This document shows, in pieces, positions 1 through 26,112 of a stretch of DNA of 31,376 nucleotides. Made by a program: the position numbers and the translations under genes. The stretch lies in IMG/VR virus record IMGVR_UViG_3300021375_000107, positions 1 to 31,376 of that record, one strand, 5' to 3'. The notes beneath the pieces are model-generated. The model saw only the letters and a list, made by a program, of their open reading frames with translations, did not search any database and had not been told where the DNA came from. This DNA is from a virus. Its lineage: Duplodnaviria > Caudoviricetes. Numbering within the stretch: the stretch's first letter is position 1; every line of letters begins with the position of its first letter.

Positions 1-447
1 ATTACCATCCGAATATAATCCTTCCTGCATAGCAGAAGCATATTCAATTTTACTTTTCTTATATGCTTTAAGTTGTGCTGCTAAATTTGTAAAACTATTG
101 TTAACATTTTGCATTTGATCAACGTATAGCATGTAGTCTGGGTCTGTTGTATCATCAAACGCGGCCGCATTTTTAGCAGCCTCCGCGTATATTGATCTTT
201 GACCAAGCAGAAAACTTCTCATAGCTGCTGTCTCCTCTGGTGTAAAGCTAGTAAAGTCCATATCGGTTTTCATATTCCGCATGTAATTATTAACTTTAGC
301 CTGTACAGCTTTATTTTCATCTACCCTAGCAGGTGTCTGTCTATTGAAACTTCCTGAGTCAACAAGCCCTTGCTTAACCGCTCCAGCAACATCTAAAAAT
401 TTCTTACCCGTTAAAGCAGCCCCTTGTATTAGTGCATTGTTTGCCAT
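1..447 (-). CDS. Partial (N-terminal 149 aa) putative ejection/internal cargo protein; runs off the left window edge
   Basis: Not in the ORF track. Hand-translated from ATG at 447 with no stop to position 1: MANNALIQGAALTGKKFLDVAGAVKQGLVDSGSFNRQTPARVDENKAVQAKVNNYMRNMKTDMDFTSF...QEGLYSDGN. Helical, Ala/Gln/Asn-rich. It lies downstream of the tail genes, where podophage ejection proteins usually sit. Confidence 0.75.
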   Translation of the reverse strand, partial: MANNALIQGAALTGKKFLDVAGAVKQGLVDSGSFNRQTPARVDENKAVQAKVNNYMRNMKTDMDFTSFTPEETAAMRSFLLGQRSIYAEAAKNAAAFDDTTDPDYMLYVDQMQNVNNSFTNLAAQLKAYKKSKIEYASAMQEGLYSDGN

Positions 448-881: not shown

Positions 882-1526
882 TTATTTACCCCCTAGTAAA
901 TTACCTAGAAAACTTCCCTCACCTTTTTGATCAGCTATACCAGGTAAACTAGGTACTATTGATCCAGCTGCTCCAGCAACTCCACCAATTATTGATTTAG
1001 TGGCTGCGTCTCTAGCTGCATTAGCAGCCCCGAGTCTTTGCTGGGACATACCTAACATAGTTTCTGTTTTATCTTTTTCAGCAGCTCTAGACTCGTAAGC
1101 ACCTTGAAGTTCTTGCCTTTGTAATTGTCCAGCCATTTGTCTTTCGGCCATTTGGTTCGAGGCTTCTTGTTGTCCAATACTTGCGGATGCAGATTGCGCA
1201 TTTGCAGTTTGTTGTTGAGCAAGTGATTGTGCTAGTGCAGCTATGCCAGATCCACCAGCAGCACCAGATAGCTTATCCATAGTGTTAGCCATACCAGCTT
1301 GTTGTTGTTGATTAACAAAGTCTGCTTGCTGTGTGTTAACCGTTAGGTCTTCCATAGTATTTTCTTGGTTAACCGCTAAATTAGATGTGTCCAAGCCTTC
1401 CATTCTCTGCTTGTTTCTATCAAATTCCCTCTGAGCTTCTCTCTGTTCTCGTTTTCTTTTGCCGCTTCCTATGATCCCTCCGGCTATCCCCGCGAGACCT
1501 TGTACGGCACCTAACATTGGTATCAT
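882..1526 (-). CDS. Putative ejection/DNA pilot-like internal virion protein
   Basis: Gly/Ala-rich hydrophobic helices at both ends (GAVQGLAGIAGGIIG; IIGGVAGAAGSIV) flank a Gln/Ala-rich coiled coil. This architecture is typical of podophage ejection proteins, and the gene follows the tail genes. Confidence 0.65.
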   Translation of the reverse strand: MIPMLGAVQGLAGIAGGIIGSGKRKREQREAQREFDRNKQRMEGLDTSNLAVNQENTMEDLTVNTQQADFVNQQQQAGMANTMDKLSGAAGGSGIAALAQSLAQQQTANAQSASASIGQQEASNQMAERQMAGQLQRQELQGAYESRAAEKDKTETMLGMSQQRLGAANAARDAATKSIIGGVAGAAGSIVPSLPGIADQKGEGSFLGNLLGGK

Positions 1527-2525: not shown

Positions 2526-3995
2526 TTATTGTTTATAAAATCCATCAGCCGCAGGGTTACCTGAAGCATCTAGTACTGATGTTGCTGTTAAAAATGTTTG
2601 TCCACTTGCTACAAAATAAGTTCCGCTTGAAACTGAGCAACAAGCCGCGTTAGCTGTTGAACCAAAGCTTAATTGAACCGGTACCAAAGCGCCCTGTATG
2701 TGCTTATCTAAATCTAAAATACTTAACAAGCTGGGTGTGCCTGTTCCGTATATTGTAACGTCAAGTACAGCGGTTAATGTTTTAGTTGCTGGTACGTTGT
2801 CTATTGTTATTGCTTGTGAGTTTACATTAAATTCATAATTAGGAAACACAGAAGCTTGATTTGTCCAATTTTGAACATTTATAGGATTAGAAATAACAAA
2901 GTTTGCGGTAGATGTGGCTGCTACTGTATATGTAAAATCCTGATTGAATGTTTCGTTACCTGGAATAAAAGTATTAGAATCAGCAACACCAACAGTTACG
3001 TTTGAATTTGTACTTGTAAACCCAAAAGATAAAGACGTATCTATATATTGATTAACTACAATTGTTGATGATTGCCCGTTTGGTGTATCAAATGTGCTGG
3101 ATAAATTACCAGTTAAAACAAAAGTATATGTTTGATTTATAGTAGTTGGCGGAAATATGACGTTAACTAAAGCTTGCCCAGTTGAATCTATTGTACCGGA
3201 GGTATTAACTATGTTAGTGTTGCCTGGTGTCGCTGTGCAAACTAAAGCCCAATTAGCCCCAGTTATTCCATTAATTGTAAATGTTCTAGTTGCTCCACCA
3301 ACATTAACATTACTAGTGTTAAAAACCCAAGATTGTATTTCAACCGGAGGGCTATATATATCAATAGCATTAGCCGTTAAACAAAATTCATCTCCGGTAA
3401 CATTGTTGACTGGAAAAGTATAAGTCACAGTAAACACTATACTTATTAATTGATTACTGCTATTGTATGTTTTAGAACTAGTAATAGAGTAGTTATTTAT
3501 ATTACCTATTGTCAATGCCAATATAGGTTCTACCTCAAAATAGTAACCTGTGCTTGCTATAACACTTTGCGTCAATACTGTTGCTGTTGTATCAAATTCC
3601 CCTGACCCACTATAGCTAGCTGGTAACTGTCCTGCTTTTGGAAAAGATATATTAGATGTGCCGCAAGCTTTTATTGTACCTGCTAAAGTTACAGGTGTTT
3701 GCTCAGCGTATCCCGAAGCACATATATCAATCAACACGTCATTTGCTGGCATTACACTTGGTGAAATATAATTAACAACACAATTTATATTAGCCCCGTC
3801 TTGCGAAAAAGTAACGCTACTGACATAACTAGGCAATGGCGCTGTGGCTGAAAAATTACTAGCAGTTACAGTATAACCAGGATCTGGTGTTATTAAAAGT
3901 ACAACAGATGGATTATCTTGCGTCCAATCAACCCCAACTACCTCTGGAAAACTTACTATAGTTACTGAAAAGTTATTTATATTTATTGATGCCAT
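2526..3995 (-). CDS. Beta-rich (Ig-like) tail/adhesin structural protein
   Basis: Thr/Ser/Asn/Val-rich, with repeated beta-sandwich-like segments (LITPDPGYTVTASNFS; VIASTGYYFEVEP) and a C-terminal Cys module. Confidence 0.65.
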   Translation of the reverse strand: MASININNFSVTIVSFPEVVGVDWTQDNPSVVLLITPDPGYTVTASNFSATAPLPSYVSSVTFSQDGANINCVVNYISPSVMPANDVLIDICASGYAEQTPVTLAGTIKACGTSNISFPKAGQLPASYSGSGEFDTTATVLTQSVIASTGYYFEVEPILALTIGNINNYSITSSKTYNSSNQLISIVFTVTYTFPVNNVTGDEFCLTANAIDIYSPPVEIQSWVFNTSNVNVGGATRTFTINGITGANWALVCTATPGNTNIVNTSGTIDSTGQALVNVIFPPTTINQTYTFVLTGNLSSTFDTPNGQSSTIVVNQYIDTSLSFGFTSTNSNVTVGVADSNTFIPGNETFNQDFTYTVAATSTANFVISNPINVQNWTNQASVFPNYEFNVNSQAITIDNVPATKTLTAVLDVTIYGTGTPSLLSILDLDKHIQGALVPVQLSFGSTANAACCSVSSGTYFVASGQTFLTATSVLDASGNPAADGFYKQ

Positions 3996-3997
3996 GC

Positions 3998-6900
3998 TTA
4001 TATTATTTCTCCTGTTAATACGTTTATGGTTACCGCGCTATTGTTTGGTTGTCTTTGTGAATATATTTCAACACCAGATTTAAATACCTGTAAGTAAACA
4101 CCGTCCCCATGCGTATTCAACCCTCCCCCTGCATTAAATGTGTCTGCTATTAACCCAAAAGAAACAATCTCAGGATTTGGTCCTGTTGTATTAGCAACTA
4201 TATTATTAGCAGTTGCTTGATCTATAGTTATTAAATTATATCTATCTTTAATACTGAATGAATCTGTACTTAATATGTATTTTTGATAAGGCGCGGATGA
4301 GCGTAATTCTGTGCTTGTAACTCCTTGGGCTACTGCTGAAGGAATTGTCGCTGCTCCTTGAACATCACCCGTCGGACTATCAGCAAACCCGTTTGCATCT
4401 AAAGTATATGTGTCATATAATCCTGTAACACCTAAATTGTTACCTACATACGCCCTAGCTATATCTGTTGTATTACCAACTATTCTATAAGTACCTCTGT
4501 TACAAGCATGATTAGCTGAAACAGTATTTGTCATTGCGGTTACTTGACCTGTTGTTGGGTCTGTATAACTTCTAGCGGTTTGTGCTCCCCTTGTTGTAAC
4601 TAAAAATTCTAGATCTAATAAAGCTGCTTCAATTGTGTCACCAGTTACTTGTTGTGTACCTGTATTTCCATCAGGATCGACTACAGTCATTGTAAAATCA
4701 ATAGCTCCTGCGCCACCAGATACCGTACTAGGGGGTATATACCAATTTCCACTACCATCATTTAATGGAGCAGGTTGATTCATCCAAGATGGCATATTAG
4801 TTTGTGGTAAAGCTATGAATAATTGTGATGGTGTGTGGTCAGGATCATCAATACCTATAGGATTATATGTCCAAACATCACCATCAACCAATCCTGTTAA
4901 AGCCGGATGATTTGTTGTAAAGTAAGGATTTTCTGCTACAGGTAAAATATTTATAGATATAGTTGCCGGATCACTACAAACCCCTGCACAACAAACCTCT
5001 ACTGTAAACGATCCAGCGTCACCATAGAAGTTTAAACTAGGATTGAAAGTAAATGAGCCACTGCTCTGTAAAACCAGTGTTCCGCTGTTTGTTGCATCAT
5101 TTATTAAATTAAATGTAGCACCAGTAGCACAAGTATTTGTATCAGCTATTTGGAATGTCCCTAATGTATCTTCAATTCCAGTAAAAGATTGATCATTAAG
5201 CAATGGAGGTATGGTTGCTGTAAAGCAAGTATCATCTAAAGATGTTGTTACAGTAAAACTAGTAGGAGTAACATCTCCTGTAATAGAATTAGCTCGTCCA
5301 ATGCCTTGCACATTAAATTCATGAGAGTCCACGTTGTTATCACAATTTGTATTAAAAAATGTGTCTAATCCTTTTATATAATTAAAATACTTACCTTCTT
5401 TGTCTAAAAATTCTTTAACCTTACCTTCTTGTAAATCTGTAACAATAGAATTAGCGTACCAACCTTTTGTTGCAGAAAAGTCATTTGGATTTAATTGTTG
5501 TGCTTGTACTTGAGCTAATGAATAAGTTTTTTGACTTGGTAGCACTTTATAAATATATTCTTTAGAATTAGTTCCGCTGTAATTTAATGTTTTAAATCCT
5601 TTTACTGATGCAGGATTTTCGTTAAATATAACATTGAATGAACTTTCATAGTAATCACCTAAAGTTTCATCACTAGGTCCTATATTATAAAAGTTATTGT
5701 GCGAAGTATTAATGTTATGCTCCCAAAGTCTACCGTCTTTAAATGTATAATACTTACTATTTAAAAATACACTAGCCTCCGGTATATATGTTTTTCTAGA
5801 AGTCCAACCGTTAACTGGTGCTTCTTTAAAAGATATAGTTGTGCTAGTTGTAGGTTTTGTGTTTAAAAATTGATTACAAGTAGGATCTGGGTTTGTTCTA
5901 TCAAACTCACCAGCACCTAAAGTTTGTTGCCAATACGGAGAAAGCGTTGAAAGCGAAACATTATAGTTCCTTCTGTCTGCATCCCATCCACCAATAATTT
6001 TATTATTTAACTTTAAATTGTCCGCAAAAAAGCTATGCATCCCATAATCAGATATCTCAGTTATCCCGTCTGCAGATAATCTTATTACAGTACCTCTATT
6101 TGCATCTGTATAATACATTCTAAAACCAAACTCTGCAAAAGATTCTGGATTAGTTGCAATACCAAATTCTCCAGAAAAAGTTATAGTTTGTCCTAGTACA
6201 GCTTGATTAGATGTAACATTTGCACTGCCATCAGCGTTAAATAAAGCATCCTTGTTAGCTAGGATCTTCATGGACTTATTTTCACATAGAGTAACTAAGT
6301 TGGTGTCTCTAGAGAATAGTTTTTGTATGCTGCCGTATTCAGGATTAACGTCTTTAGTTATAGATTCAGCTTGTATAAATTGGTTTAAACCATTAACACC
6401 AGATGTTGAATTGTATATTTGAGAAAATATTAACCCATTACCTCTATGTTCTTCATTATACGGTTCATCTAATGTGGCTGAAGCTTTAACACCGTTTTCA
6501 ATAACAGGCTGATTAAAGTCATCTCTTATACGATCCGACTCTACACCATTTGCAAAAGAATAACAGTTAAAAAAGTTTAATGTATGCTCAACACCATGCT
6601 GTGTTGCTGTTTCATAAGAGCCCGGCACTTCGTAATATATATCAAGTTCGGCTGCTTCTTTTGGTTCTGTTTCAAATATAGCTGGATTAGCTGAAGTAAA
6701 ACCTTTGTCTTCTGGGTTTAAAGTTAAAAACTCCATACCAACATAATTGCTGTTATTAGAACAAGTATAGCTTGTTAAGCCGCCGTCAACTACTGGGTCC
6801 CATTGAAGACCGCCTGAACCTTCAATTGGTTTTATAGTTAACTTATATCTTCTTAAAGTATTTAAACTATCTCTATACATTACATTTGAACCAGCACATG

Positions 6901-9775: not shown

Positions 9776-10699
9776 TTACGATTTAATCCATTTGGATTGA
9801 TTTCTCATTACTTGTGCCATTAGATCTGATTTTAATTCTGATAAACGAATTTTAGCATTTCTTCTAGCTGCCACCATTTCTTTTTTAAACCTTTGGATAG
9901 CGTATTCTTGTGTGTTGGCTCTTACTGATAATATAGCGTGGGCTATGTATTTATATATTGCATCAATAGCAAACTTATGTACCGTCATGTCTTCATCACA
10001 TCCTAAACCATCACTTATATATTTTAAAGTTACGATTTTTCCAACTAAATTTGAGCTGAATCTTATCATACCTTTCTTTTGGTCTATATAAAATACACCA
10101 TTAGCCTGTGTTTGTTCTGGATTCAATCCATATCTACCTCCATAAGCATATAAGTTTAAAAGATCAGGGTTATTTTGCCAAGCATTCCATCCATTTTCAG
10201 AATCACCCAAGGGATATCTACTGTTTTCTTGCCATCTCCTTAATGTTTCAGATGGTTGCGGGTATGCAACCTCTCCGTTTTCATCAAATATATATTCGTA
10301 TTCACCGTCTTGTGCATAAGGTAATGGATTACTAGTTAGATCTGTTCTGTATATTATTCTTTCAATACCTTTATTATCTACCCAAGATAATTTAGTATAG
10401 TTAATATAATCCTGAGGCATAACCATATATAAACCAGGAGGACACTCAATTTCCACTGATTTTTCTTGCGGTAAAGTATCAAAGCTAAACTCTTGTATAG
10501 CTTGTTGAGCATGGAATGCAACATCTGTTCTCTTAACTTTTGTAATTATTTTTTCTTCTCCAACATAAATAACCATAAAATTATTTATGATATCTGATAT
10601 GCTCACAAATTGATAGCCGCCGTAATTTTCATCATTACTGTCCCAAACACCGTCTGGTCCTAAATAATATTCTTCCTGTGTTTTATTTATTAACGCCAT
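9776..10699 (-). CDS. Tail ring / head-tail connector structural protein
   Basis: Lies between the capsid module and the muzzle. Motifs RTDVAFHAQQAIQEFSFD, MPQDYINYTKLSWVD and LKYISDGL fit crAss-like ring proteins. Confidence 0.65.
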   Translation of the reverse strand: MALINKTQEEYYLGPDGVWDSNDENYGGYQFVSISDIINNFMVIYVGEEKIITKVKRTDVAFHAQQAIQEFSFDTLPQEKSVEIECPPGLYMVMPQDYINYTKLSWVDNKGIERIIYRTDLTSNPLPYAQDGEYEYIFDENGEVAYPQPSETLRRWQENSRYPLGDSENGWNAWQNNPDLLNLYAYGGRYGLNPEQTQANGVFYIDQKKGMIRFSSNLVGKIVTLKYISDGLGCDEDMTVHKFAIDAIYKYIAHAILSVRANTQEYAIQRFKKEMVAARRNAKIRLSELKSDLMAQVMRNQSKWIKS

Positions 10700-10702
10700 C
10701 TA

Positions 10703-11455
10703 TTATTGTTTTTCTTGTTGTGTAGTTTGTACCTCTATACTATTAGCAACCTGATACATTTGTATTTCTTTTGTAGACAAACCAGCGAAAGCTAATATCT
10801 TAATAACTAATTCAGTTTCTTCAGATTCGTGTAATTCAAAGTTAACAGCAGTAGTAGCATCGTATAATGCTTCGCCGTATACCATTTGATATCCCCACGC
10901 TACCTCTGACGGTACTTTTATATAATTACATGTTACACCAGTAGTTAACTCTCCAGCGGAACCATATACCTTATAGCCAGCATCGCTAGCCACAAAAACA
11001 GGTCTTGAGTTAGTGGGTTTTAAATACTCAGATTGATTAATCATTAAGTATTCATTGTAGTTTGTACGCTCCGCTTCAACAAGGGTTGTCGTATTTACTA
11101 CAGTATTTGGTGTTGGATATAATGAAAGGGATGATACTGTGTTTGCATAAACAATAGTACCTAATCTATATAGATCAGCGGGTGCTGTCCAATAGTTTTG
11201 GGCGCTATAAGTCATAGCCCCATTTTTTTCGAATATGTTAATCTTTTCATTAAGGATGTTAAGCATATCGGAAAACTCGGTATCATTACCTGGTACTCTT
11301 CCAAACTGATTAATATCATAAAAGTATTGTTCGAATATATCTAATTGAGCTTGATTAGCAAATAGATTAAATTCCTGAGGAGTAACATACCCTCTTTGCT
11401 CTTTATTAAGTATTGCTAATACTCTTTGATATACAGTATCTACGCTTACAGCCAT
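10703..11455 (-). CDS. Tail tubular/ring protein (P22 gp4-like adaptor)
   Basis: VYQRVLAILNKEQRGYVTPQEFNLFANQAQLDIF N-terminus, P.DLYRLG and NYIKVP..V.WGY; synteny with the capsid and tail genes. Confidence 0.7.
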   Translation of the reverse strand: MAVSVDTVYQRVLAILNKEQRGYVTPQEFNLFANQAQLDIFEQYFYDINQFGRVPGNDTEFSDMLNILNEKINIFEKNGAMTYSAQNYWTAPADLYRLGTIVYANTVSSLSLYPTPNTVVNTTTLVEAERTNYNEYLMINQSEYLKPTNSRPVFVASDAGYKVYGSAGELTTGVTCNYIKVPSEVAWGYQMVYGEALYDATTAVNFELHESEETELVIKILAFAGLSTKEIQMYQVANSIEVQTTQQEKQ

Positions 11456-15149: not shown

Positions 15150-15159
15150 TTATTATTAC
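15150..15159 (-). promoter_or_regulatory. Candidate late promoter core GTAATAATAA upstream of the scaffold/MCP genes
   Basis: Matches the core of the 18-mer at 1549 and 26508; overlaps the portal stop codon. Confidence 0.4.
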
Positions 15160-17585
15160 CTAGGATCAAAAGCACCTAAGCCAAATCCACCTCCCATTGT
15201 GTCATTTCCTCCAGATTCGAAGTTAGTCGGCGGTGTATCGTTTTTTCTTTGAGCAATCATTTCACTTTGCTGCGTACCTTGTATTCTTGTACGTTGATCT
15301 TTTCGATCTTCTATTTCTTTTTCTTTGTCTTTAGCATTCTGAACTTCTATGCCTTTAAGCTGCATGTTGTATTGAAATTCCAAAGCCATCAATTCTTTTT
15401 TAGCACCAACTTCAACACCTATTCTTTGCTGCTCAATTTGACCCTTTAATTGCTCTAATTGAGATTTAGTTTGAAATAATGCTTGATCTTTTTGTATTTC
15501 AGCCTGTGCTGCTACTTGTTGGGCTTGCGCGTTTGCTTGAGCTTGAGCCTGTATATTTGCTTGCTGTTCTTGTTGTAATCTTTCTTGACGTTTCTTTTGC
15601 CTAACTTTCAATAATTGATTAGCCAGTTTTATATTCTTAACCTCTCTTATATCTATAGCATCAGATAAATCAATTAACCCAGCTGATAATGCTTGTTGTA
15701 CATTGTTTTCTAAAAGCTGTTGCTCTTCTTCATCAGGTGTTAATTCTAAAAATATACCAAAATCGTGTAAGTGCAAATCTTTTAATTCATCTAAAGTAGC
15801 TACATTAAACCCACCTATTTTTTGAATGAATGATTCTTTTGCTGGATGGTATTCAAGTATATCAGATATTCTTAAAGATAAACATTCTGCTGTTTCTCTT
15901 GTTAAATATAAACCTGCATCAAGTATATGTCTTGTTGCCGTGTTACTATTAGCTGCTGCTAATTTTTGAACACCCACTAAAGCTCTTGAATCTGGCGTAC
16001 TGCCATCTCTTGCTTCATTTAATCCGGTTACATCTCTTATCATTTGTAAATAATAATTGTAAGTAGATATAAGCGTTTGCAGCTTTTGGCCTCCGCTTCC
16101 GGTTTGAACTTCTTGTATTGGCACTTTGCCAGGGTTCATATCGCCCTCTTGTGTAAATGACCTACCTATTATAGATCCTGTTTGGAAAAACATATTAAGC
16201 GCTTCCTGGGGATTATAATTTGTGCCATTGCCTAAATCAACTTCATTTATACCATCAGCATCTAAATAAACACCGTCTGGTATCATTCTTTGTAATACTT
16301 GTTGCAATTTTAAATGTGTTAATTGTATCATATCAGCAAAAGCAGTACAACGACTTACTATTGATTCTATTCTACCTTGATACATTCTAGGAGCTGTTAT
16401 AGCGTAATTCATTTTAACTTTTGAACTATCACTTTTTGGTCGCATCATATTCTTAGCCATCTCCCATTTAAGTAATATATCAGTTCCCAATACCATTACG
16501 CCTTCATATAAGACTTCAAGTGACCTAGACATTTTACCAAATTGCTCCTCGTACATTTCAATAGGCGGATTGAATTGATCATCTCTTGCTATTATTTTTG
16601 ATGCACCTGTTGCAGTCTCTTTTACTTTATAAACTTCATTCATGTAAGTTTTGTAATTAAAGTAAAGTATCTGAACTATGTTTTGATCTCTATTATTATT
16701 GTTTGTATTACTTATGTTATTATTCCAAACTCCATAATTTTGTGATCCCTGTGATTGTATCTGGTCCATCTGCTCTTCAGACAGGTCCGGAAACTGCTTT
16801 TTAAGCTCGTTTAAGGGCACGAATTTAACTTCGCCTGCATAATATATATCTTGAAAATAAGGGTCCTCTGTGTAAGAATAAATTAAATAAGCCGGATCTA
16901 CATATTCTACTGTTACACCTTCAGCTTCTGTAAAATTATTTTTAACAGCACCAATACCAAGAGTGGTTATGTCATAGTAATATCTTTTCTTTGTTAAGTC
17001 ATATCTATTTTCATCAAACATAACATTCAAGGCTTCTTCTTCTGCTATCTCAATACCTTGCTTGTAGCTAAGCTGCATGTGTAAATCCAACTCCTCCTCA
17101 GAATCTGGTAATTTATCTGGATTGTTTTCAAATAAGTTTATACCAAAATTTTCTTGTGCAAATACATTCAACTCTTCTGTTTGTAGATCTCTTATAATAG
17201 ATTCCATATACCTAGTTCTTTTGCTAACTCCATATGGATCTTGAGAATAAGCAGTAAGATCAAAAGACCTATCAGCTATACCATTAACAACTATATCAAC
17301 AAATTTTGACAATATTGGTACTGGTTTCCAATCTAAATTAAGATAAGATAAATCGCCATTAATAGACATTTCATCTTTGTATTTTTGTATAGGCTGTTCA
17401 CCTCTTGCATATAGCCTTAAGCTATGGAATGTGTTTTGATTGCTTCTGAATCTAGTTACACCAGAGTTGTTCGAGAACCACTCATTTTGAATTGCTCTTC
17501 CAACTTGGAGCCCGTAGTCTCGTGACATCTTCTCAGAGTCACTTGCGACTTGACTTGGGAAAAAACTATTTACTACTCCTGCCAT
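15156..17585 (-). CDS. Portal protein
   Basis: 809 aa directly after terL. Motifs LRLYARGEQPIQKYK, SYLNLDWKPVPILSKFVDIVVNG and IRDVTGLNEARDG; Gln-rich C-terminal coiled coil (barrel). Confidence 0.88.
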   Translation of the reverse strand: MAGVVNSFFPSQVASDSEKMSRDYGLQVGRAIQNEWFSNNSGVTRFRSNQNTFHSLRLYARGEQPIQKYKDEMSINGDLSYLNLDWKPVPILSKFVDIVVNGIADRSFDLTAYSQDPYGVSKRTRYMESIIRDLQTEELNVFAQENFGINLFENNPDKLPDSEEELDLHMQLSYKQGIEIAEEEALNVMFDENRYDLTKKRYYYDITTLGIGAVKNNFTEAEGVTVEYVDPAYLIYSYTEDPYFQDIYYAGEVKFVPLNELKKQFPDLSEEQMDQIQSQGSQNYGVWNNNISNTNNNNRDQNIVQILYFNYKTYMNEVYKVKETATGASKIIARDDQFNPPIEMYEEQFGKMSRSLEVLYEGVMVLGTDILLKWEMAKNMMRPKSDSSKVKMNYAITAPRMYQGRIESIVSRCTAFADMIQLTHLKLQQVLQRMIPDGVYLDADGINEVDLGNGTNYNPQEALNMFFQTGSIIGRSFTQEGDMNPGKVPIQEVQTGSGGQKLQTLISTYNYYLQMIRDVTGLNEARDGSTPDSRALVGVQKLAAANSNTATRHILDAGLYLTRETAECLSLRISDILEYHPAKESFIQKIGGFNVATLDELKDLHLHDFGIFLELTPDEEEQQLLENNVQQALSAGLIDLSDAIDIREVKNIKLANQLLKVRQKKRQERLQQEQQANIQAQAQANAQAQQVAAQAEIQKDQALFQTKSQLEQLKGQIEQQRIGVEVGAKKELMALEFQYNMQLKGIEVQNAKDKEKEIEDRKDQRTRIQGTQQSEMIAQRKNDTPPTNFESGGNDTMGGGFGLGAFDPR

Positions 17586-19800: not shown

Positions 19801-20075
19801 TACTTAGATCTTTTTTCAGCAAACCCCCCGAATGAAGTTGTTTCAACTTCTTTTTTAGGCTTATTATCTAATATTCTTTCTTCTTCCTCAATGCGGTTAA
19901 GTATTTCGAAAGCATCAAAAATTGCAAGCTTTTTAGTAGCTGCAGCATTTTTTAATCTATCAGCGGATATATCATCATCTGAATCAACAATATCTTCTTT
20001 AGCTACTTTAATAAGTTCCTCAACTGCTCTGTGCCCAGCCTGGATTATATTCTTCTTCGTTTCCTTGATGTTCAT
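19800..20075 (-). CDS. Putative terminase small subunit
   Basis: 91-aa helical protein coupled to terL by a TAATG overlap; ADRLKNAAATKKLAIFDAFEIL, ending GFAEKRSK. Confidence 0.55.
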   Translation of the reverse strand: MNIKETKKNIIQAGHRAVEELIKVAKEDIVDSDDDISADRLKNAAATKKLAIFDAFEILNRIEEEERILDNKPKKEVETTSFGGFAEKRSK

Positions 20076-20613
20076 ATTTGATTGTAATTGAATTGACGGG
20101 TACTCGGTATAACCTCTGCCCTTCTATTATAAATTCATATTCTGAATTCGGTCTAAACCCTATCAATTGCTCTTTTTCAAATTCACCATTCGAGTATTTT
20201 ACAATACCAACTAATGGCCTTTCATCATTTACAGAAAACATTTTTGTTTCTTTTATAGGCATAACAAATACAAAGCCGTCTAAAGCTTTCCATTCGTTAT
20301 TTCTTTTATAAGCATACACTTGATCTGGTTGAACTAAATATACATTTTCACTTAAATAGTTTTTACTATCTTTCTCTTTACCTCTAACATCTCTAAATCT
20401 TCTAAACACATTGTGATGTACAATAACATCGTCGCCTTCTTTTAATTCCTTATATACTGTTACTAGTGGTAAACTTAATACAGTTCCTATTCTATTCACG
20501 TATTCGTGATTTTGTAATTCTGTATTTAATAATAGCTCTTGTCCTTCTACTTCTTTTTTTCCAGTTGACCTACTGCCCTTCGGTTCAACTAGGTAATTGA
20601 ATACACTGTGCAT
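20020..20613 (-). CDS. GroES-like co-chaperonin with an apparent tandem GroES fold
   Basis: First half YLVEPKG...ELLLNT...RIGTVLSLP...LKEGDDVIVHH; second half FVFVMPIKE...LVGIVKY...LIGF...EFIIEGQRLYRV. Both follow the Cpn10 strand pattern. Confidence 0.55.
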   Translation of the reverse strand: MHSVFNYLVEPKGSRSTGKKEVEGQELLLNTELQNHEYVNRIGTVLSLPLVTVYKELKEGDDVIVHHNVFRRFRDVRGKEKDSKNYLSENVYLVQPDQVYAYKRNNEWKALDGFVFVMPIKETKMFSVNDERPLVGIVKYSNGEFEKEQLIGFRPNSEYEFIIEGQRLYRVPVNSITIKYEHQGNEEEYNPGWAQSS

Positions 20614-21264: not shown

Positions 21265-21349
21265 TTGATAAATATATTAATAATAAAACTAAAGGTAAAT
21301 TTAAATGTGGCTCACCACACATTCCTGTAATGTGATTTAGCAATTCCAT
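21191..21349 (-). CDS. 52-aa possible membrane micro-protein with H-x3-M-CGEPH motif (not in the ORF track)
   Basis: Hand translation MELLNHITGMCGEPHLNLPLVLLLIYLSNEIKRIRGYHRKNNQSNRNKEASR*. The start overlaps the upstream gene's end, and the 3' end overlaps 21109-21264 by 74 nt. Confidence 0.45.
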   Translation of the reverse strand: MELLNHITGMCGEPHLNLPLVLLLIYLSNEIKRIRGYHRKNNQSNRNKEASR

Positions 21350-21696
21350 TTACGTCTTGCTGCTTTGCCTCTTTCGCCAGTCCAACCTCTGGATCTTGCG
21401 CAGAATGATTTACGTCTTTTAGCCGCTTTGCTATCTGGATCTAGTTTTGATGGTGGTGTTGTTACTGCTGTTTTTAAATTACCACCAGTTTTTTTATTGT
21501 AATTAGCGACACCTTTAGCTGTCATGCCGCCTCCAGCATCTTTTCCAGTACCTCCGCCTTTTTTAACTTCAGCGTAGTTACCAGATTTTTTATTACGCTT
21601 AGGTGCGTATGATTTTGATTTTGCCTTTTTAAGAGGACTTGCGTATCTCTCAGTCGTCATTAGAGCTGGAGAACAAGGTTTCATTTTAAATGCCAT
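21337..21696 (-). CDS. Small basic protein, DUF6321-like, with MAFKMK leader
   Basis: GGMTAKGVANYNKKTGGNLKTAVT...RRKSFCARS...ARRKWNC domain, preceded by MAFKMKPCSPAL...SPLKK. Confidence 0.7.
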   Translation of the reverse strand: MAFKMKPCSPALMTTERYASPLKKAKSKSYAPKRNKKSGNYAEVKKGGGTGKDAGGGMTAKGVANYNKKTGGNLKTAVTTPPSKLDPDSKAAKRRKSFCARSRGWTGERGKAARRKWNC

Positions 21697-22622
21697 TATT
21701 TAAAGTAGTTTTTCTTCATTGGTGACTTTGATTTAAAAAAGTTTGGAGAACTTTTTTTGTCTGGTGATTCAACAATAACCCCTCCGGCCTTAATAACAGC
21801 TTTTTGGCCTTCGTAAGTTTTAGATACATCTGGTAATTCCATATCTCTGGAAGCACTATCAAATGTTCCAGTTTTTAATGGGTCTTTGCTCATTTCAACT
21901 TGTCTAGTTCTAGCTGTCATGTTTTTATTAAAAGCATCTAACTCTGCGTAATTTTCTTCTACCTTAGCTTTTTTCCTAGCATTTCTAACTGCTTCCCTGC
22001 GCTTTTTACCTTTAAGTTTAGTTGTTTCTTGGAAATTACCATCTTTGTCTATTCTACCACCACCACTAGCTGCTAGTTTAGCCGCTTTTATTTTAGCCTG
22101 ACGGACATCCTTACCGGATTTTTTAATTGACCTACTTTGCTGCCTAACTCTCCAAGGCGACATTGCATCCATTTTATCTCTTGTTTGGGTTGCGGTAAAT
22201 TTTTCTTTTTTATCACCTGGTATTACTTCATCTGGTTCACTTTGCCCAGTGTCTACCTGATTTCTTGGCGCATTAGGATTATCCTTAGCCCATTGTTTCA
22301 TTTCATCCGTAACTGTAATCCCTTCTGCTTCTAAATCTGCAAATGTTTTATTTCTAGTTATTTTTTTCCCTTTAACAATTTTATCGCCGGTTGACTCTGA
22401 TTCTAATACACCTACTTTCTGCTTTATTGGCGACTCAGTTTTTTTTTTCATTGAGTAACCTCTTAGCTTACTTGGTGATGGAATGTCTCTAGTTTGATTA
22501 TCCCCATGCACACCAGCTGGGCCTACATTTAATAAAGGTTCTTTTACACCTTTCTTTTGATTAAATAAACCAGATTCTACTCTTGCAGTAATCGGTATGT
22601 TCTTTTTTCCTTTTGTTCCCAT
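21696..22622 (-). CDS. Basic low-complexity protein with multiple SPxK motifs (putative internal head protein)
   Basis: Lys/Arg-rich; contains SPSK, SPIK, SPDK and SPMK; TAATG-coupled to the next gene. Confidence 0.7.
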   Translation of the reverse strand: MGTKGKKNIPITARVESGLFNQKKGVKEPLLNVGPAGVHGDNQTRDIPSPSKLRGYSMKKKTESPIKQKVGVLESESTGDKIVKGKKITRNKTFADLEAEGITVTDEMKQWAKDNPNAPRNQVDTGQSEPDEVIPGDKKEKFTATQTRDKMDAMSPWRVRQQSRSIKKSGKDVRQAKIKAAKLAASGGGRIDKDGNFQETTKLKGKKRREAVRNARKKAKVEENYAELDAFNKNMTARTRQVEMSKDPLKTGTFDSASRDMELPDVSKTYEGQKAVIKAGGVIVESPDKKSSPNFFKSKSPMKKNYFK

Positions 22623-22636
22623 TATAGTTAGTTATG

Positions 22637-23050
22637 TTATTTTGTTAGATCCGCCGCTTTAGGTTCCTCTTTTTCTTCAAAGATTTTACCTACTTCAGCC
22701 CCTGCATCTACAAATTTTTTGCCAGTTAATGCAGCGCCAGCTACTAAAGTTTCGTTAATTTTGAAAGGTGAAGATTTTGATTTTTGTGTTATTGGATTCA
22801 TTTTAGCAGGACTAGCTAAATCACCACCGTATCCATCTTGAAAATACGCTTCTCCACCGTAAAAATTTTTCTTTTTACCTGGAGACGAAAGTCTTTCTTG
22901 AAAAGATGCTTTAGCTTGCTTCAAAGAAACTTCTTCTCCTCCAACACCTTGTCTTGGTCCTGGATCAGATTTTTCTTGAAAACCACTCGCGTTTTGTTTA
23001 GACTCTATTTTATTAAGCCTACTTGCTTGTCCTCTATATGTAATTGCCAT
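22637..23050 (-). CDS. Small SPxK-segmented protein carrying a copy of a cargo-protein N-terminal motif
   Basis: Contains SPGK, SPAK and SPFK; the last segment INETLVAGAALTGKKFVD matches the N-terminus of ORF 1-447. Confidence 0.72.
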   Translation of the reverse strand: MAITYRGQASRLNKIESKQNASGFQEKSDPGPRQGVGGEEVSLKQAKASFQERLSSPGKKKNFYGGEAYFQDGYGGDLASPAKMNPITQKSKSSPFKINETLVAGAALTGKKFVDAGAEVGKIFEEKEEPKAADLTK

Positions 23051-23052
23051 AA

Positions 23053-23406
23053 TTATGATTGTTTATATGCTTCGTCCTCCCATTCAAAATCAGGATGCCC
23101 CTCATTCATTTCAGACCGTTTGTATACTTTCATAGGAGATTTAGTGTCTCTTTTCCAAGTTACAGAATCTTCTGTGTATTGTAACCTACCGGTGGCTAGT
23201 TGATCTAAATGAACTTTTTCGTGAGCAACAGCTTTTTCTATCTTTTTATCAGATAATTTTGAACTAACAAAAATAGTTCCATCTCTATTAGCTTCAGCTT
23301 CAACCCCTTCTTCCAAATCATCTTTTAAAATGACAGGAGTACCAAACTGGGATGTTTTTTCATGTATCCCAAATACTTCTGAATGAGGTTTTAACTTAAA
23401 TGCCAT
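23053..23406 (-). CDS. Zincin-like HExxH metallopeptidase with MAFKLK leader
   Basis: AEANRDGTIFV...AVAHEKVHLDQ, with a downstream WEDEAY providing a candidate third zinc ligand. Confidence 0.75.
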   Translation of the reverse strand: MAFKLKPHSEVFGIHEKTSQFGTPVILKDDLEEGVEAEANRDGTIFVSSKLSDKKIEKAVAHEKVHLDQLATGRLQYTEDSVTWKRDTKSPMKVYKRSEMNEGHPDFEWEDEAYKQS

Positions 23407-23810
23407 TATCCTTTATATCCAGATTTAGAAGCTGCTTGTGCATTTTCCGCGTAATGCTTTCTTGCTTTAGCACTTAATTTTTGGTTTGAAGCTTCTTTAA
23501 TATCATACTTCATTCCTTTATTCATTTTAGCTGGTGATTTACCTTGTTTAGCGGCAATTGCATCCACTATTTGTTTTGGTAAATTCTTTTTTTGCTTAGC
23601 TGTTTGCTTAGCAGGTGATTCGTAATCTTTTTTTGATTTACTTTCGTCACCTTTTTTACCACCATACATTTTTGCAGGTGATTCGTAATCTAATTTACTT
23701 TTAGATTCATCTCCTTTTTTACCGCCGTACATTTTAGCAGGTGACACAGCTCCACCTTTTCTTGCTCCAATTTTGTTTGGACCAATACCTTTAAATCCTG
23801 AATATCCCAT
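23406..23810 (-). CDS. Small basic SPAK-repeat protein
   Basis: Four SPAK motifs and a 21-aa tandem repeat SPAKMYGGKKGDESKSK[L/K]DYE. Confidence 0.75.
   Translation of the reverse strand: MGYSGFKGIGPNKIGARKGGAVSPAKMYGGKKGDESKSKLDYESPAKMYGGKKGDESKSKKDYESPAKQTAKQKKNLPKQIVDAIAAKQGKSPAKMNKGMKYDIKEASNQKLSAKARKHYAENAQAASKSGYKG
23608..23745 (-). repeat. 63-bp coding tandem repeat (about 2.2 copies)
   Basis: gcaggtga recurs at 23611, 23674 and 23737 (period 63); copies are 20/21 identical in amino acids. Confidence 0.85.
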
Positions 23811-23826
23811 TTTTAATATTTATTAG

Positions 23827-24267
23827 TTATCTATTTTTATCTTTTATCATATCGTCAATAGCTTTATTATAAACCTTGTCTGTATATGTTTTGTTTTTAT
23901 AAAATTTACTTCTTGAAGATGTTGGTAAATCTTCTTCTGCTAATAGTATTCTGTATATCCTATTAATTAAATTTTTACATTTAAAAGATGTTGTATATAC
24001 AGTGAACTTTTTTGTTGTTCTGTTTCTTTGACTCCATACATCGATCCAACCTCCAGTTCTTAATCTTTCCCATCTAGCTTTATCCCAAGAGTATGTGTAC
24101 ACACCTTCTATAAAATCATTACGTGTAAAATGCTTTTTACAATCTAAATAAAATAGCAATTCAAGATCTGCATCTTTTATGTCATAAGTTTTACAAGCCC
24201 ATTTTCTAACAAGCCTGTAATACTTAAATAAATTCATTTCTCGCAGATCTTTTGAAGTTAATCTCAT
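23827..24267 (-). CDS. Putative winged-helix (MarR-like) DNA-binding protein
   Basis: DIKDADLELLFYL...FTRNDF...WERLRTGGWIDVW...VYTTSFKCKNLINRIY fits the wHTH helix/wing pattern. Confidence 0.5.
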   Translation of the reverse strand: MRLTSKDLREMNLFKYYRLVRKWACKTYDIKDADLELLFYLDCKKHFTRNDFIEGVYTYSWDKARWERLRTGGWIDVWSQRNRTTKKFTVYTTSFKCKNLINRIYRILLAEEDLPTSSRSKFYKNKTYTDKVYNKAIDDMIKDKNR

Positions 24268-24521
24268 TCTACTAAAACAACATCATTGATGGTAATAACG
24301 TGGTACATCTTATCACCCCATTCAATACCATGACCTGCATGTTTGTCGTATCTTATAATGCTATCTTTTTTTATATAATCTACTTTATCACCAGAGCTTA
24401 TAACTTTTGCCTTTAAGTACCTAATGTCTTTATTTTGACTTTCAGTTAATTCAAGACCACCTACTGTCTTCGGCGCTTCTTTTATTTTATCAATAACGAT
24501 GTAATAATTAATTGCTTTCAA
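24264..24521 (-). CDS. groES: Co-chaperonin GroES (Cpn10)
   Basis: MKAINYYIVI...KTVGGLEL...AKVISSGDKV..IKKDSIIRYDKHAGHGIEWGDKMYHVITINDVVLV; overlaps the groEL 3' end. Confidence 0.88.
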   Translation of the reverse strand: MKAINYYIVIDKIKEAPKTVGGLELTESQNKDIRYLKAKVISSGDKVDYIKKDSIIRYDKHAGHGIEWGDKMYHVITINDVVLVE

Positions 24522-26112
24522 GAGTTCTTACGTTTGAGATTATACAATCAGCCGATACAATAGTTGTCGCTACACTTATTGCATTCTTTAAAGCCGCTTT
24601 AGTTACTAATACTGGATCTATAATTCCACTATCAATCATATTCTTATAACATCCGCAAGTGGCATCAATACCAACACCTGCCCAGTCTCTATCATTTATG
24701 TCTTTATTACTTTCGACATATTCTTTAGGGTTTAAAGCATCATCAAATCCAGCGTTTTTTAATATAGTATGGTAAGGTGCTGTTATAGCGCTTAGTAATA
24801 TATCGTAACCTTCATCTTGTTTTACTATAGTCTGTGAAGCGTTAAGTAAAGCAACGCCGCCTCCTGGAACAATGCCTTCTGCTAATGCAGCTTTAGTTGC
24901 ATGCAATGCATCATCAACTCTATCTTTTTTTTCTTTGAGTTCAACCTCTGAATCCGCACCAATGTAGATTACACCAACTTTTCCAGTAAGCATCGATAAT
25001 CTTTCTTGTAGCTTCTTTTTAATCCAGCCGTTTTTTTCTTTTTCTATTTTTCTTTCTACGTCTTTAATTCTTTCAGCTACAGGTTCTGTAACTTCATTAA
25101 TTTGCAGCGTAGTGTTTTTATCGTCTGTAACGGACTTAACGACTTCACCTAATACATTTACATCTATTAAATCTAAATCATCGCCTAACTCCTCGTTAAC
25201 AGCTGTAGCACCAGTCAGGATAGCTAAATCTTCTATAGCATCTTCTTTAGTTGGTCCAAATCCAGGTAAATCTACAATATTTACTTTTATATTGCCTTTA
25301 ACTTTATTAGCAAGCAGTGTGGCATATGGTTGTTGGTCTACTGGAGCAACAATTAACAAAGAACGTTTGCTTTTTACAACATGTTCTAATATACCCTGTA
25401 TTCTTCTTACATTAGGTATTGCTGAACTTACTATTAACACATAAGGATTTTCTAATACTGCTGTACCTTTTTCTTTATCTGTTATTAAGTGAGGTGATTT
25501 AATACCTGAATTAAATTGTGTACCCTCAACAAACTCAACATAAGTTTCATTTGTAGGGGAATCTTCCATTAATACGACTCCGTTTCGTCCAACTTTTTCA
25601 TATGCTTCTCCAATTTTATCTCCAAGTTCTTGGTCATTGTTACAGCTAATATATGCAACTTGATTAAGCATTTCACCTTTAACCTCAGTGGAGGTAGTAT
25701 CAAGATAGTCCATAATCTCTTTAGCACATCTTGTAACTCCTTCTTTAATATATCTAATTGATTCTTCGCCATCGTATTCGTTTAGTTTATTTAATAGTGA
25801 TTGAGCAAGGACGATAGCCGTAGTGGTACCGTCACCTGCTTCTTTCACTGTATTACTAGCAGCTTCTTTTATCAAAGTAGCTCCTATATTTTCGACCGGG
25901 TCCATTAAGACTACGCTTTCCGCAACGGTTACACCATCTTTTGTGATTACCGGTCTGCCCATAGCGTCTTCGTATATAACGCATTTTCCAGAAGCACCTA
26001 AGGTGGACTTCACTGCGTCGGATAATTTAGAAACACCGGACATGATTTTATTTCGTGCATCATCGCCGAAATTCAGATCTTTAACAATCTGACTAGGTAA
26101 ATTAAATTCCAT
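24508..26112 (-). CDS. groEL: Chaperonin GroEL (Cpn60)
   Basis: Motifs AVKSTLG, ITKDGVTVA, AGDGTTTA, PGFG, ELKEKKDRVDDALHATKAA, GIVPGGGVALL and GIIDPVLVTK; no GGM tail. Confidence 0.96.
   Translation of the reverse strand: MEFNLPSQIVKDLNFGDDARNKIMSGVSKLSDAVKSTLGASGKCVIYEDAMGRPVITKDGVTVAESVVLMDPVENIGATLIKEAASNTVKEAGDGTTTAIVLAQSLLNKLNEYDGEESIRYIKEGVTRCAKEIMDYLDTTSTEVKGEMLNQVAYISCNNDQELGDKIGEAYEKVGRNGVVLMEDSPTNETYVEFVEGTQFNSGIKSPHLITDKEKGTAVLENPYVLIVSSAIPNVRRIQGILEHVVKSKRSLLIVAPVDQQPYATLLANKVKGNIKVNIVDLPGFGPTKEDAIEDLAILTGATAVNEELGDDLDLIDVNVLGEVVKSVTDDKNTTLQINEVTEPVAERIKDVERKIEKEKNGWIKKKLQERLSMLTGKVGVIYIGADSEVELKEKKDRVDDALHATKAALAEGIVPGGGVALLNASQTIVKQDEGYDILLSAITAPYHTILKNAGFDDALNPKEYVESNKDINDRDWAGVGIDATCGCYKNMIDSGIIDPVLVTKAALKNAISVATTIVSADCIISNVRTLESN

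Follow-up and report, generated by a model that had tools for sequence, protein, structure and literature searches.

Here we describe a peptide motif that occurs twice in the 31,376-base stretch of DNA analyzed in this study (IMG/VR record IMGVR_UViG_3300021375_000107, hereafter the window), which is the entire contig of a virus of the class Caudoviricetes. One copy lies within a small gene of the minus strand, directly behind a Ser-Pro-x-Lys (SPxK) joint, and the other forms the N terminus of a larger minus-strand protein that is cut by the window edge and is a probable cargo (ejection) protein. This duplicated motif is real and conserved in a group of uncultured marine phages and has apparently not been described before, and a shared docking role for the peptide, as proposed by the first-pass annotation, is its best reading. 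The motif-bearing features are as follows.

22637..23050, minus strand: small gene, 137 aa, bearing the motif and three SPxK joints; relatives may lack the first ~80 aa
22679..22759, minus strand: stand-alone motif copy INETLVAG...FVD...VGKIF, 27 aa, found by a hidden Markov model (HMM) of cargo N termini and including 22706-22738
22760..22771, minus strand: SPFK, the SPxK joint directly preceding the motif and putative cleavage site
22772..22798, minus strand: basic, PIT-containing leader segment NPITQKSKS ahead of SPFK
364..444, minus strand: cargo N-terminal motif copy ANNALIQG...FLD...VKQGL

The small open reading frame (ORF) reads SPFK-INETLVA-GAALTGKKFVD, with the Gly codon at 22738 and the Asp codon ending at 22706, and the ORF starting from the ATG at 447 reads M-ANNALIQ-GAALTGKKFLD, with the motif core at 423 to 391. 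Exactly as first annotated, 10 of the 11 core residues are identical, five of these ten codons differ synonymously, and the motif Gly is the eighth residue both after SPFK and, in the 447 protein, after removal of Met. The exact nine-residue word is the longest common to any two of the 32 ORFs in the window; none of 300 per-protein shuffles reached a shared word of this length, and two reached eight. BLAST lengthens the match to 22 residues, 13 of them identical (E about 1e-3 within the window). Since the form with a six-residue spacer is also found in the deep branches G034 and G062, the 10/11 identity seen here reflects two near-consensus copies. Across the family, the two copies within a genome use the same codon at 114 of 229 identical residues, compared with 100.5 +/- 7.2 expected and 46% across genomes. 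Codon identity is thus near the cross-genome level, which rules out recent DNA copying or gene conversion and agrees with the earlier claim that the peptide, rather than the DNA, is conserved. RNA-library contigs overlap parts of both motif stretches and are uninformative on transcription, strand, and start.

The element shared within the family spans ~27 aa and consists of N..L[VI].G[AE], a spacer of 4-12 residues, F.D, and then an amphipathic stretch. With an HMM made from cargo N termini only, the small gene was the second match in most fetched contigs. Its copy scored above 10 bits in 37 of the 41 fetched contigs covering the SPxK gene cluster in which it lies, and among the other four, G029 has a copy visible by eye and G057 a motif-like ORF outside the interval. 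Both copies are retained across relatives, as the first-pass annotation required. A DNA pattern, SPxK[IM]N..L[VI].G, retrieved 107 viral loci; of these, 101 go on to F.D/N, which is absent from the pattern, after a spacer of 6 or 8, and P[IV]T is present within 12 aa upstream in 104. An AGY-serine scan gave 12 loci, and two of those inspected (L478 and L482) had no motif match. A profile search of 1.84 billion proteins returned 94 matches, of which 33 have the cargo core, 34 follow SPxK, 19 are N-terminal without a scored core, and eight are other (two of these being unrelated repeats). The motif thus seems, from these sequences, to occur almost only in two settings: at the cargo N terminus and after SPxK. 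The N, L, G, F, and D residues are invariant across lineages with 54-100% major capsid protein (MCP) identity to the window, while the flanks are free, and across 12 close small-gene loci, which are nonindependent, synonymous differences number 118 and amino-acid differences 37. A single cargo, that of G054, has Ala in place of the invariant Gly. Mimicry of a host protein was also considered, and the 94 matches suggested no cellular family, which is a weak result because the searched library is without names.

The first-pass annotation had taken SPxK for a cleavage site. On sequence grounds, cleavage after its Lys is reasonably probable, and it has indirect support from spacing and from natural fusions. 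In 37 of 40 internal profile matches exactly four residues separate an SPxK-like Lys from the conserved Leu (32 with a strict SPxK), the register that removal of Met would give, and in 41 of 51 N-terminal matches four residues separate Met from Leu; the Ser-Pro of SPxK is absent from the search profile. The genomic setting of the joint is as follows.

21337..23810, minus strand: SPxK cluster of five genes, flanked by the GroEL/GroES and terminase blocks
23053..23406, minus strand: metalloprotease-like protein with an HExxH motif (HEKVH), 117 aa, next to the small gene on its upstream side; candidate protease for the SPxK joints

The 815 aa of this cluster contain 13 SPxK; outside it, the window has a single one in 9,405 aa. 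It closes a basic leader ahead of an independent module, and the HExxH gene is adjacent. The product of ORF 23053-23406 matches the metallo-protease family PHROG 87 (E=0.0018), and it has a homologue in 41 of the 41 contigs covering the cluster.

Three relatives, G071, G057, and G073, have natural fusions of leader and SPxK to ejection proteins. In G071, a 450-aa gene between the pore-type homologue (see below) and the giant gene begins MSKK-SPLK-MNLQLVQGA; when compared with the cargo family by hhalign (E=3e-4, probability 39%), its aligned part includes the motif. The cargo-position gene of G057 begins with an 18-aa basic leader, SPLK, and INSTLVKGA, and ~15 of its 35 homologues have, by eye, the same leader-SPLK-motif start. 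G057-type proteins are tied to the cargo by their synteny, by the motif's left half, and by cores that match weakly (E=7.5e-4, probability 25%), the cargo N-terminal HMM having no significant score on G057-type N termini. In G073 it is the pore-type protein (L492:2284-2922; 64% identical over 173 aa) that has an 8-aa basic leader and SPLK ahead of the usual hydrophobic N terminus, and it is thus a second ejection protein bearing the tag. Complete small genes have a leader of 12 to 129 aa ahead of SPxK; on the G071 and G057 cargos it is 4 to 18 aa long.

Against cleavage stand the 12 of 99 cargos that carry 4-9 additional N-terminal residues, four profile matches that are one residue longer, and a motif copy in G073 that has no leader. 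The equal spacing may also have been inherited, and the MAFKMK starts of neighboring genes might fit a different register. The fixed spacing and the natural fusions give the cleavage claim indirect support, and the extended cargos speak against it.

We also observed that G057-type proteins (L456:6047-8725, P0001-P0035) are 650-1,090 aa long, with long Cys-rich or low-complexity inserts separating motif and core and several SP[FLM]x joints, which gives them a polyprotein-like look.

What, then, is the protein whose N terminus is copied? Two genes at the end of the minus-strand order are relevant here.

1..447, minus strand: first 149 codons of the cargo protein, cut by the window edge; crAss cargo-2-like, tunnel-type
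882..1526, minus strand: helical protein of 214 aa, hydrophobic at its ends, occupying the place of the outer-membrane pore protein of ejection cassettes; proposed partner of the motif

The cargo gene is the middle one of a small-medium-giant ejection cassette that follows the tail genes. Its pore-type neighbor lies immediately upstream in 37 of 40 contigs, and the giant gene after it encodes 2,483-3,009 aa in the 13 contigs with the whole gene. Full-length cargo proteins have 360-450 aa in relatives, the window ORF is the start of a protein of ~405-430 aa, and the ATG at 447 is the conserved start, since Leu is at index 5 in 87 of 99 homologues. The cargo model is helical (predicted local distance difference test score, pLDDT, 70; residues 1-37 below 50). 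Its BFVD neighbors have a best E of 3.8e-4 with low TM and include a Gundel_1 protein (E=2.4e-3) and, from E 0.01, crAss-like entries. In the ESM Atlas its features lie near PF25712, crAss cargo 2 (score 0.90, 176 shared features, the family being on 36% of the cluster). However, PF25712 was listed for none of 17 cargo homologues at E up to 5, and we therefore call the 447 protein a likely tunnel-type ejection protein that is not a PF25712 member. Fold searches of the PDB with the model gave nothing at E 0.001 and no Z of 8; its best VIA Z, 6.7 (root-mean-square deviation 4.4, 106 aligned), was to unrelated bundles, and a sequence search of the PDB gave a single match at E 1.3. As for the pore-type protein, its model is all-helical and its profile matches the elemo gp87 "structural protein" (E=3e-5); a T7_gp14 match is weak among its members (2 of 23, best E 0.055). 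Cassette position and fold and feature neighbors together make it very probable that the 447 protein is an ejection protein, as had been surmised from the sequence alone.

The two copies also change together. We assembled a paired set of 35 contigs with both copies, corresponding to 20 lineages at a tree distance of 0.05; long metagenome contigs (600-base flanks) contributed cargo N termini but no pairs. The own-genome score is 49.1 vs. 41.4 across genomes (permutation p=1e-4, 20 lineages), and the signal persists in the deep lineages alone (n=7, p=0.018). Several derived states are shared by both copies. In G010/G020/G025, which are nested among spacer-6 relatives, both have GE and a spacer of eight instead of six; in G029/G030, both have Asp in place of Asn together with a Tyr upstream and a lengthened offset; matching GE/GN states are found in G028, G052, and G059, and NNTL..GAGD in G051. 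For two of five unpaired small copies (G046 and G060), the best-scoring cargo among 39 is that of the nearest genome. Because such lineage-specific changes are common to both copies in deep branches, the spare copy is likely a stand-in. Judged from these alignments, the co-variation suits two ligands that loosely follow one site, not a lock-and-key pair, and it is likely that both copies use one shared binding site.

We tentatively propose that the small protein is a leader-tagged copy of the tunnel protein N terminus, serving as a placeholder or chaperone on the pore protein (ORF 882-1526). The basic leader would load the small protein into the prohead, and the HExxH protein would cut it after SPxK. 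The freed peptide would then occupy the site used by the N terminus of the tunnel protein, sitting on the likely outer-membrane pore protein as placeholder or chaperone. Such a spare tip might cover surplus pore subunits and prevent early assembly, and it could shield the partner of the tunnel protein within the head until infection. Should the shared site exist, the chance that the pore protein is the partner is, by analogy, about even. We favor it because of two known systems. In DEV, the N-terminal helix of gp72 (25-54) binds gp73 (64-93) (PMC11445570). In T7, gp15 solubilizes gp14 in the head, gp14 is present in maybe 8-20 copies and may outnumber gp15, and the far N terminus of gp15 likely associates with gp14 after ejection (PMC8954989). 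Structures of related cassettes favor the pore protein no less than the portal or capsid interior, which the first-pass annotation had named. In a slightly broader form, to which we give a little less than even credence, a dedicated protease-released peptide mimic might cap the pore protein or hold the docking site, and thereby order assembly of the ejectosome.

A number of observations weigh against this proposal. The copies co-vary overall, which the first-pass annotation had proposed as a check, but loosely and without being phage-specific: of the 20 lineages, just 3 have their own cargo as the best match, and the main clade by itself gives p=0.07 (0.39 without the window and G010 lineages). 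Strict phage-by-phage matching of the copies is thus rejected. Of 19 node contrasts, 12 are positive and 7 negative (sign p=0.18, Wilcoxon p=0.049). When the nodes are divided at a depth of 0.15, a split picked after viewing the data, positive contrasts make up 10 of 11 among the deeper nodes and 2 of 8 among the shallower ones. For the unpaired small copies of G063, G062, and G034, the nearest cargo is not the best match, and the spacers of the two copies mismatch within nine genomes (G024, G050, G028, G029, G030, G052, G055, G056, and G059). G047 and G054 have a short PIT-leader ORF only, in which the copy is degenerate at best, and G073 has the leaderless copy mentioned above. In G057-type proteins, 450-550 aa and a second joint, SP[FLM][HM]Q, separate the motif from the core. 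Neither the motif nor the SPxK cluster was found in the cultured relatives elemo (whole record) and Panino (15-64 kb) or in a spring-water podovirus (1-45 kb), so neither is needed for this virion plan. Finally, the tunnel proteins of N4 and DEV have been observed on the portal before ejection (PMC13434306, PMC11445570).

This last point makes the portal, or the tail lumen, the main rival site.

15156..17585, minus strand: portal protein, candidate rival partner of the motif; PHROG 6547, with a match to crAss001 gp20 (E=1.5e-4)

Both copies could bind the portal, at its wing or crown, or the lumen of the tail rings, the free peptide filling spare sites of a 12-fold ring or keeping them for the arriving cargo; this version, in essence that of the first-pass annotation, we regard as rather unlikely. 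In N4, gp51 folds into a helical hairpin at the wingtip of the portal and is on the portal before ejection (PMC13434306), DEV gp72 surrounds the portal before ejection (PMC11445570), and crAss001 gp45 has a 32-residue helix inside rings R1/R2 (PMC10172136). Two conserved half-sites with a variable, Gly-rich spacer of 4-12 aa would fit a hairpin, and in G057-type proteins motif and core are separable. However, the portal-bound parts in these structures are not the extreme N terminus (residues 95-503 of DEV gp72, 425-552 of crAss gp45), and the mean column identity of the portal is 83% whereas the motif spacer varies widely.

Three other readings are less likely. In the first, which we consider improbable, the small protein is an adaptor: its motif would pair with the cargo motif and supply in trans a PIT/SPxK loading leader that the cargo has lost. 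The G057 and G071 cargos indeed have leader and SPxK in cis and window-type cargos have none, and direct pairing would account for the co-variation. Yet G057 retains a stand-alone motif-like ORF (5512-5733) despite its cis leader, one G073 copy lacks a leader, and pore-type and giant proteins are mostly without one too. Just as improbable is a decoy, that is, a peptide ejected or expressed to block tunnel assembly by superinfecting relatives or to absorb a host factor recognizing the ejection protein. The peptide does mimic a surface of the ejection protein, it sits among modular, SPxK-bearing, cargo-like genes, and its match to the clade consensus exceeds that to the phage itself, which would suit the blocking of relatives. 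On the other hand, there is no evident signal peptide or membrane anchor, the gene forms a chain with late structural genes, and under host pressure a decoy should change faster than the substitution counts above indicate. The copy might lastly be a relic of the duplicated 5' end of a leader-bearing cargo gene, for which G057 and G071 would represent the likely ancestral layout, the equal spacing being inherited and the copy seemingly lost or degenerate in G047 and G054, or the motif might only help the protease or the loading apparatus to recognize the protein, without binding a structural site, but both are improbable, a shade more so than the foregoing, given that five residues are invariant between free flanks, that 37 of 41 clusters keep the copy, that shared derived changes need coupled selection, and that other SPxK modules are without the motif.

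Ejection cassettes and tag-loaded internal proteins are already known, and the present system can be set beside them. The podovirus cassettes of T7 (gp14/gp15/gp16), N4 (gp52/gp51/gp50), and DEV (gp73/gp72/gp71) likewise have a small gene for a hydrophobic-ended protein, a medium gene for a helical one, and a giant gene, in that order (PMC8954989, PMC13434306, PMC11445570), and in DEV the pore-protein-binding part is the N-terminal helix of the medium protein. They differ in that their solved chains have no significant sequence or fold match here, and the portions of these papers at hand do not describe a second gene copying the N terminus of the tunnel protein. Crassvirus cargo protein 2 (crAss001 gp46; PF25712) resembles the 447 protein in lying after the muzzle and a first cargo and before a giant cargo; portal and muzzle are crAss-like as well, and fold neighbors of the cargo are among crAss-like phage proteins. 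However, the upstream cargo there is the 90.8-kDa gp45, vs. 214 aa here, and the accessible text on crAss001 describes no SPxK cluster (PMC10172136). The capsid-targeting sequence of T4 IPII/IPIII is comparable because it is an N-terminal tag shared by small, nonstructural proteins, with a phage protease nearby, and is also found on larger ejected proteins; it is sufficient for the loading of a foreign protein, and the prohead protease gp21 removes it (PMC9958956). In T4 this is a conserved targeting sequence of ~10 aa at the N terminus (PMC9958956), which we did not find here, where the leader is basic, of variable length, ends in SPxK, is repeated internally, and lies beside an HExxH protein. 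The processed product here moreover copies another virion protein, and a gp21 homologue was not found among the genes of the window. Flavobacterium phage elemo (Elemovirus) and Maribacter phage Panino share the structural gene order, GroEL/GroES, and the pore-type homologue, but the only likeness to the motif, by eye, is to its right half, at the start of a cargo helix (xD[FW]G). A literature search, outside of which lay most subscription papers and supplements, found no phage SPxK tag and no stand-alone copy of an ejection-protein N terminus.

For podoviruses and crassviruses it is an open question how the ejection proteins get into the head, stay soluble there, and come out in the right order. 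The natural copy of the tip, 27 residues long, would mark the docking segment of the tunnel protein and offers a ready probe for it. The fusions of leader and SPxK to two different ejection proteins are the clearest indirect sign so far of a removable tag, which could serve to load chosen proteins into phage heads. If our proposal is true, these abundant uncultured marine phages possess a regulatory component of DNA ejection without a described counterpart.

The small gene itself seems to encode little else. Its smallest versions (58-63 aa) consist of leader, SPxK, motif, and a short tail only, and the tail is variable and acidic, the motif being the constant part of the gene, which leaves no conserved payload. 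The 137-aa protein has no Pfam or PHROG family, tblastn against GenBank phages gave only noise (E 6-8), and its best ESM Atlas score is 0.84, to clusters without names. At L133-L136:3001-3243, an 80-aa form of the gene ends exactly ahead of the module made of SPxK and motif. In the PIT-leader ORFs G047:11134-11274 (L134) and G054:21033-21191, QEVTID[AG]AGKI replaces the motif. The complete 71.5-kb genome of G073 has two stand-alone motif copies (L491:1243-1551 and L487:1264-1641) near an endolysin-like gene, one after SPFK and the other at an ORF start without a leader. Additional SPxK genes are located immediately behind the giant cargo gene, at a distance from the main cluster (L070:19287-19854 and G002:30869-31441), and their modules sit within the cluster in other genomes. 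At 21337-21696 in the window, a DUF6321/PHROG 10346 module follows SPLK; since it matches the C-terminal end of a profile with 525 positions, this module is also present in longer proteins elsewhere.

All the main genes of the window are on the minus strand, in the following order.

minus strand, first part: tail fiber, GroEL, GroES, five-gene SPxK cluster, second GroES-like gene, terminase
minus strand, continued: portal, likely scaffold, MCP, two ring-type proteins (10703-11455 and 9776-10699), muzzle, ORFs 882-1526 and 1-447

GroEL and then GroES occupy 24264-26112, and the second GroES-like gene (20020-20613, 197 aa) lies ahead of the terminase block. The MCP is 43-48% identical to those of elemo, Panino, and the spring-water podovirus (43-46% for elemo and Panino). 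The phage fits group 2 of the uncultured marine Flavobacteriaceae phages, the group with GroEL, of Nishimura et al. (PMC5332604), and its host is presumably a member of the marine Flavobacteriaceae.

Among the giant cargo proteins (L075:11246-20275 and 12 other contigs), 12 of 13 have an HExxH near residue 740-1,000, and one has a polynucleotide-kinase-like PHROG match (E=1.6e-6). The RNA polymerase motif D[FYL]D[GI]D is absent from all 13 whole proteins, and we therefore do not call them virion RNA polymerases. Between the pore-type and cargo genes of the window, at 454-864, lies an ORF of 136 aa with a lipoprotein-type signal (LTSC), a candidate exclusion lipoprotein. It is confined to the clade of the window (3 of 40 contigs) and is missing from an RNA-library contig (joint 476-892). 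Small Cys-rich ORFs at 1912-2519 and 3700-3995 have common N-terminal and C-terminal repeats (BLAST E 2e-4 to 6e-4) and are likely fiber or decoration modules; the same repeats recur at the end of a 489-aa ORF.
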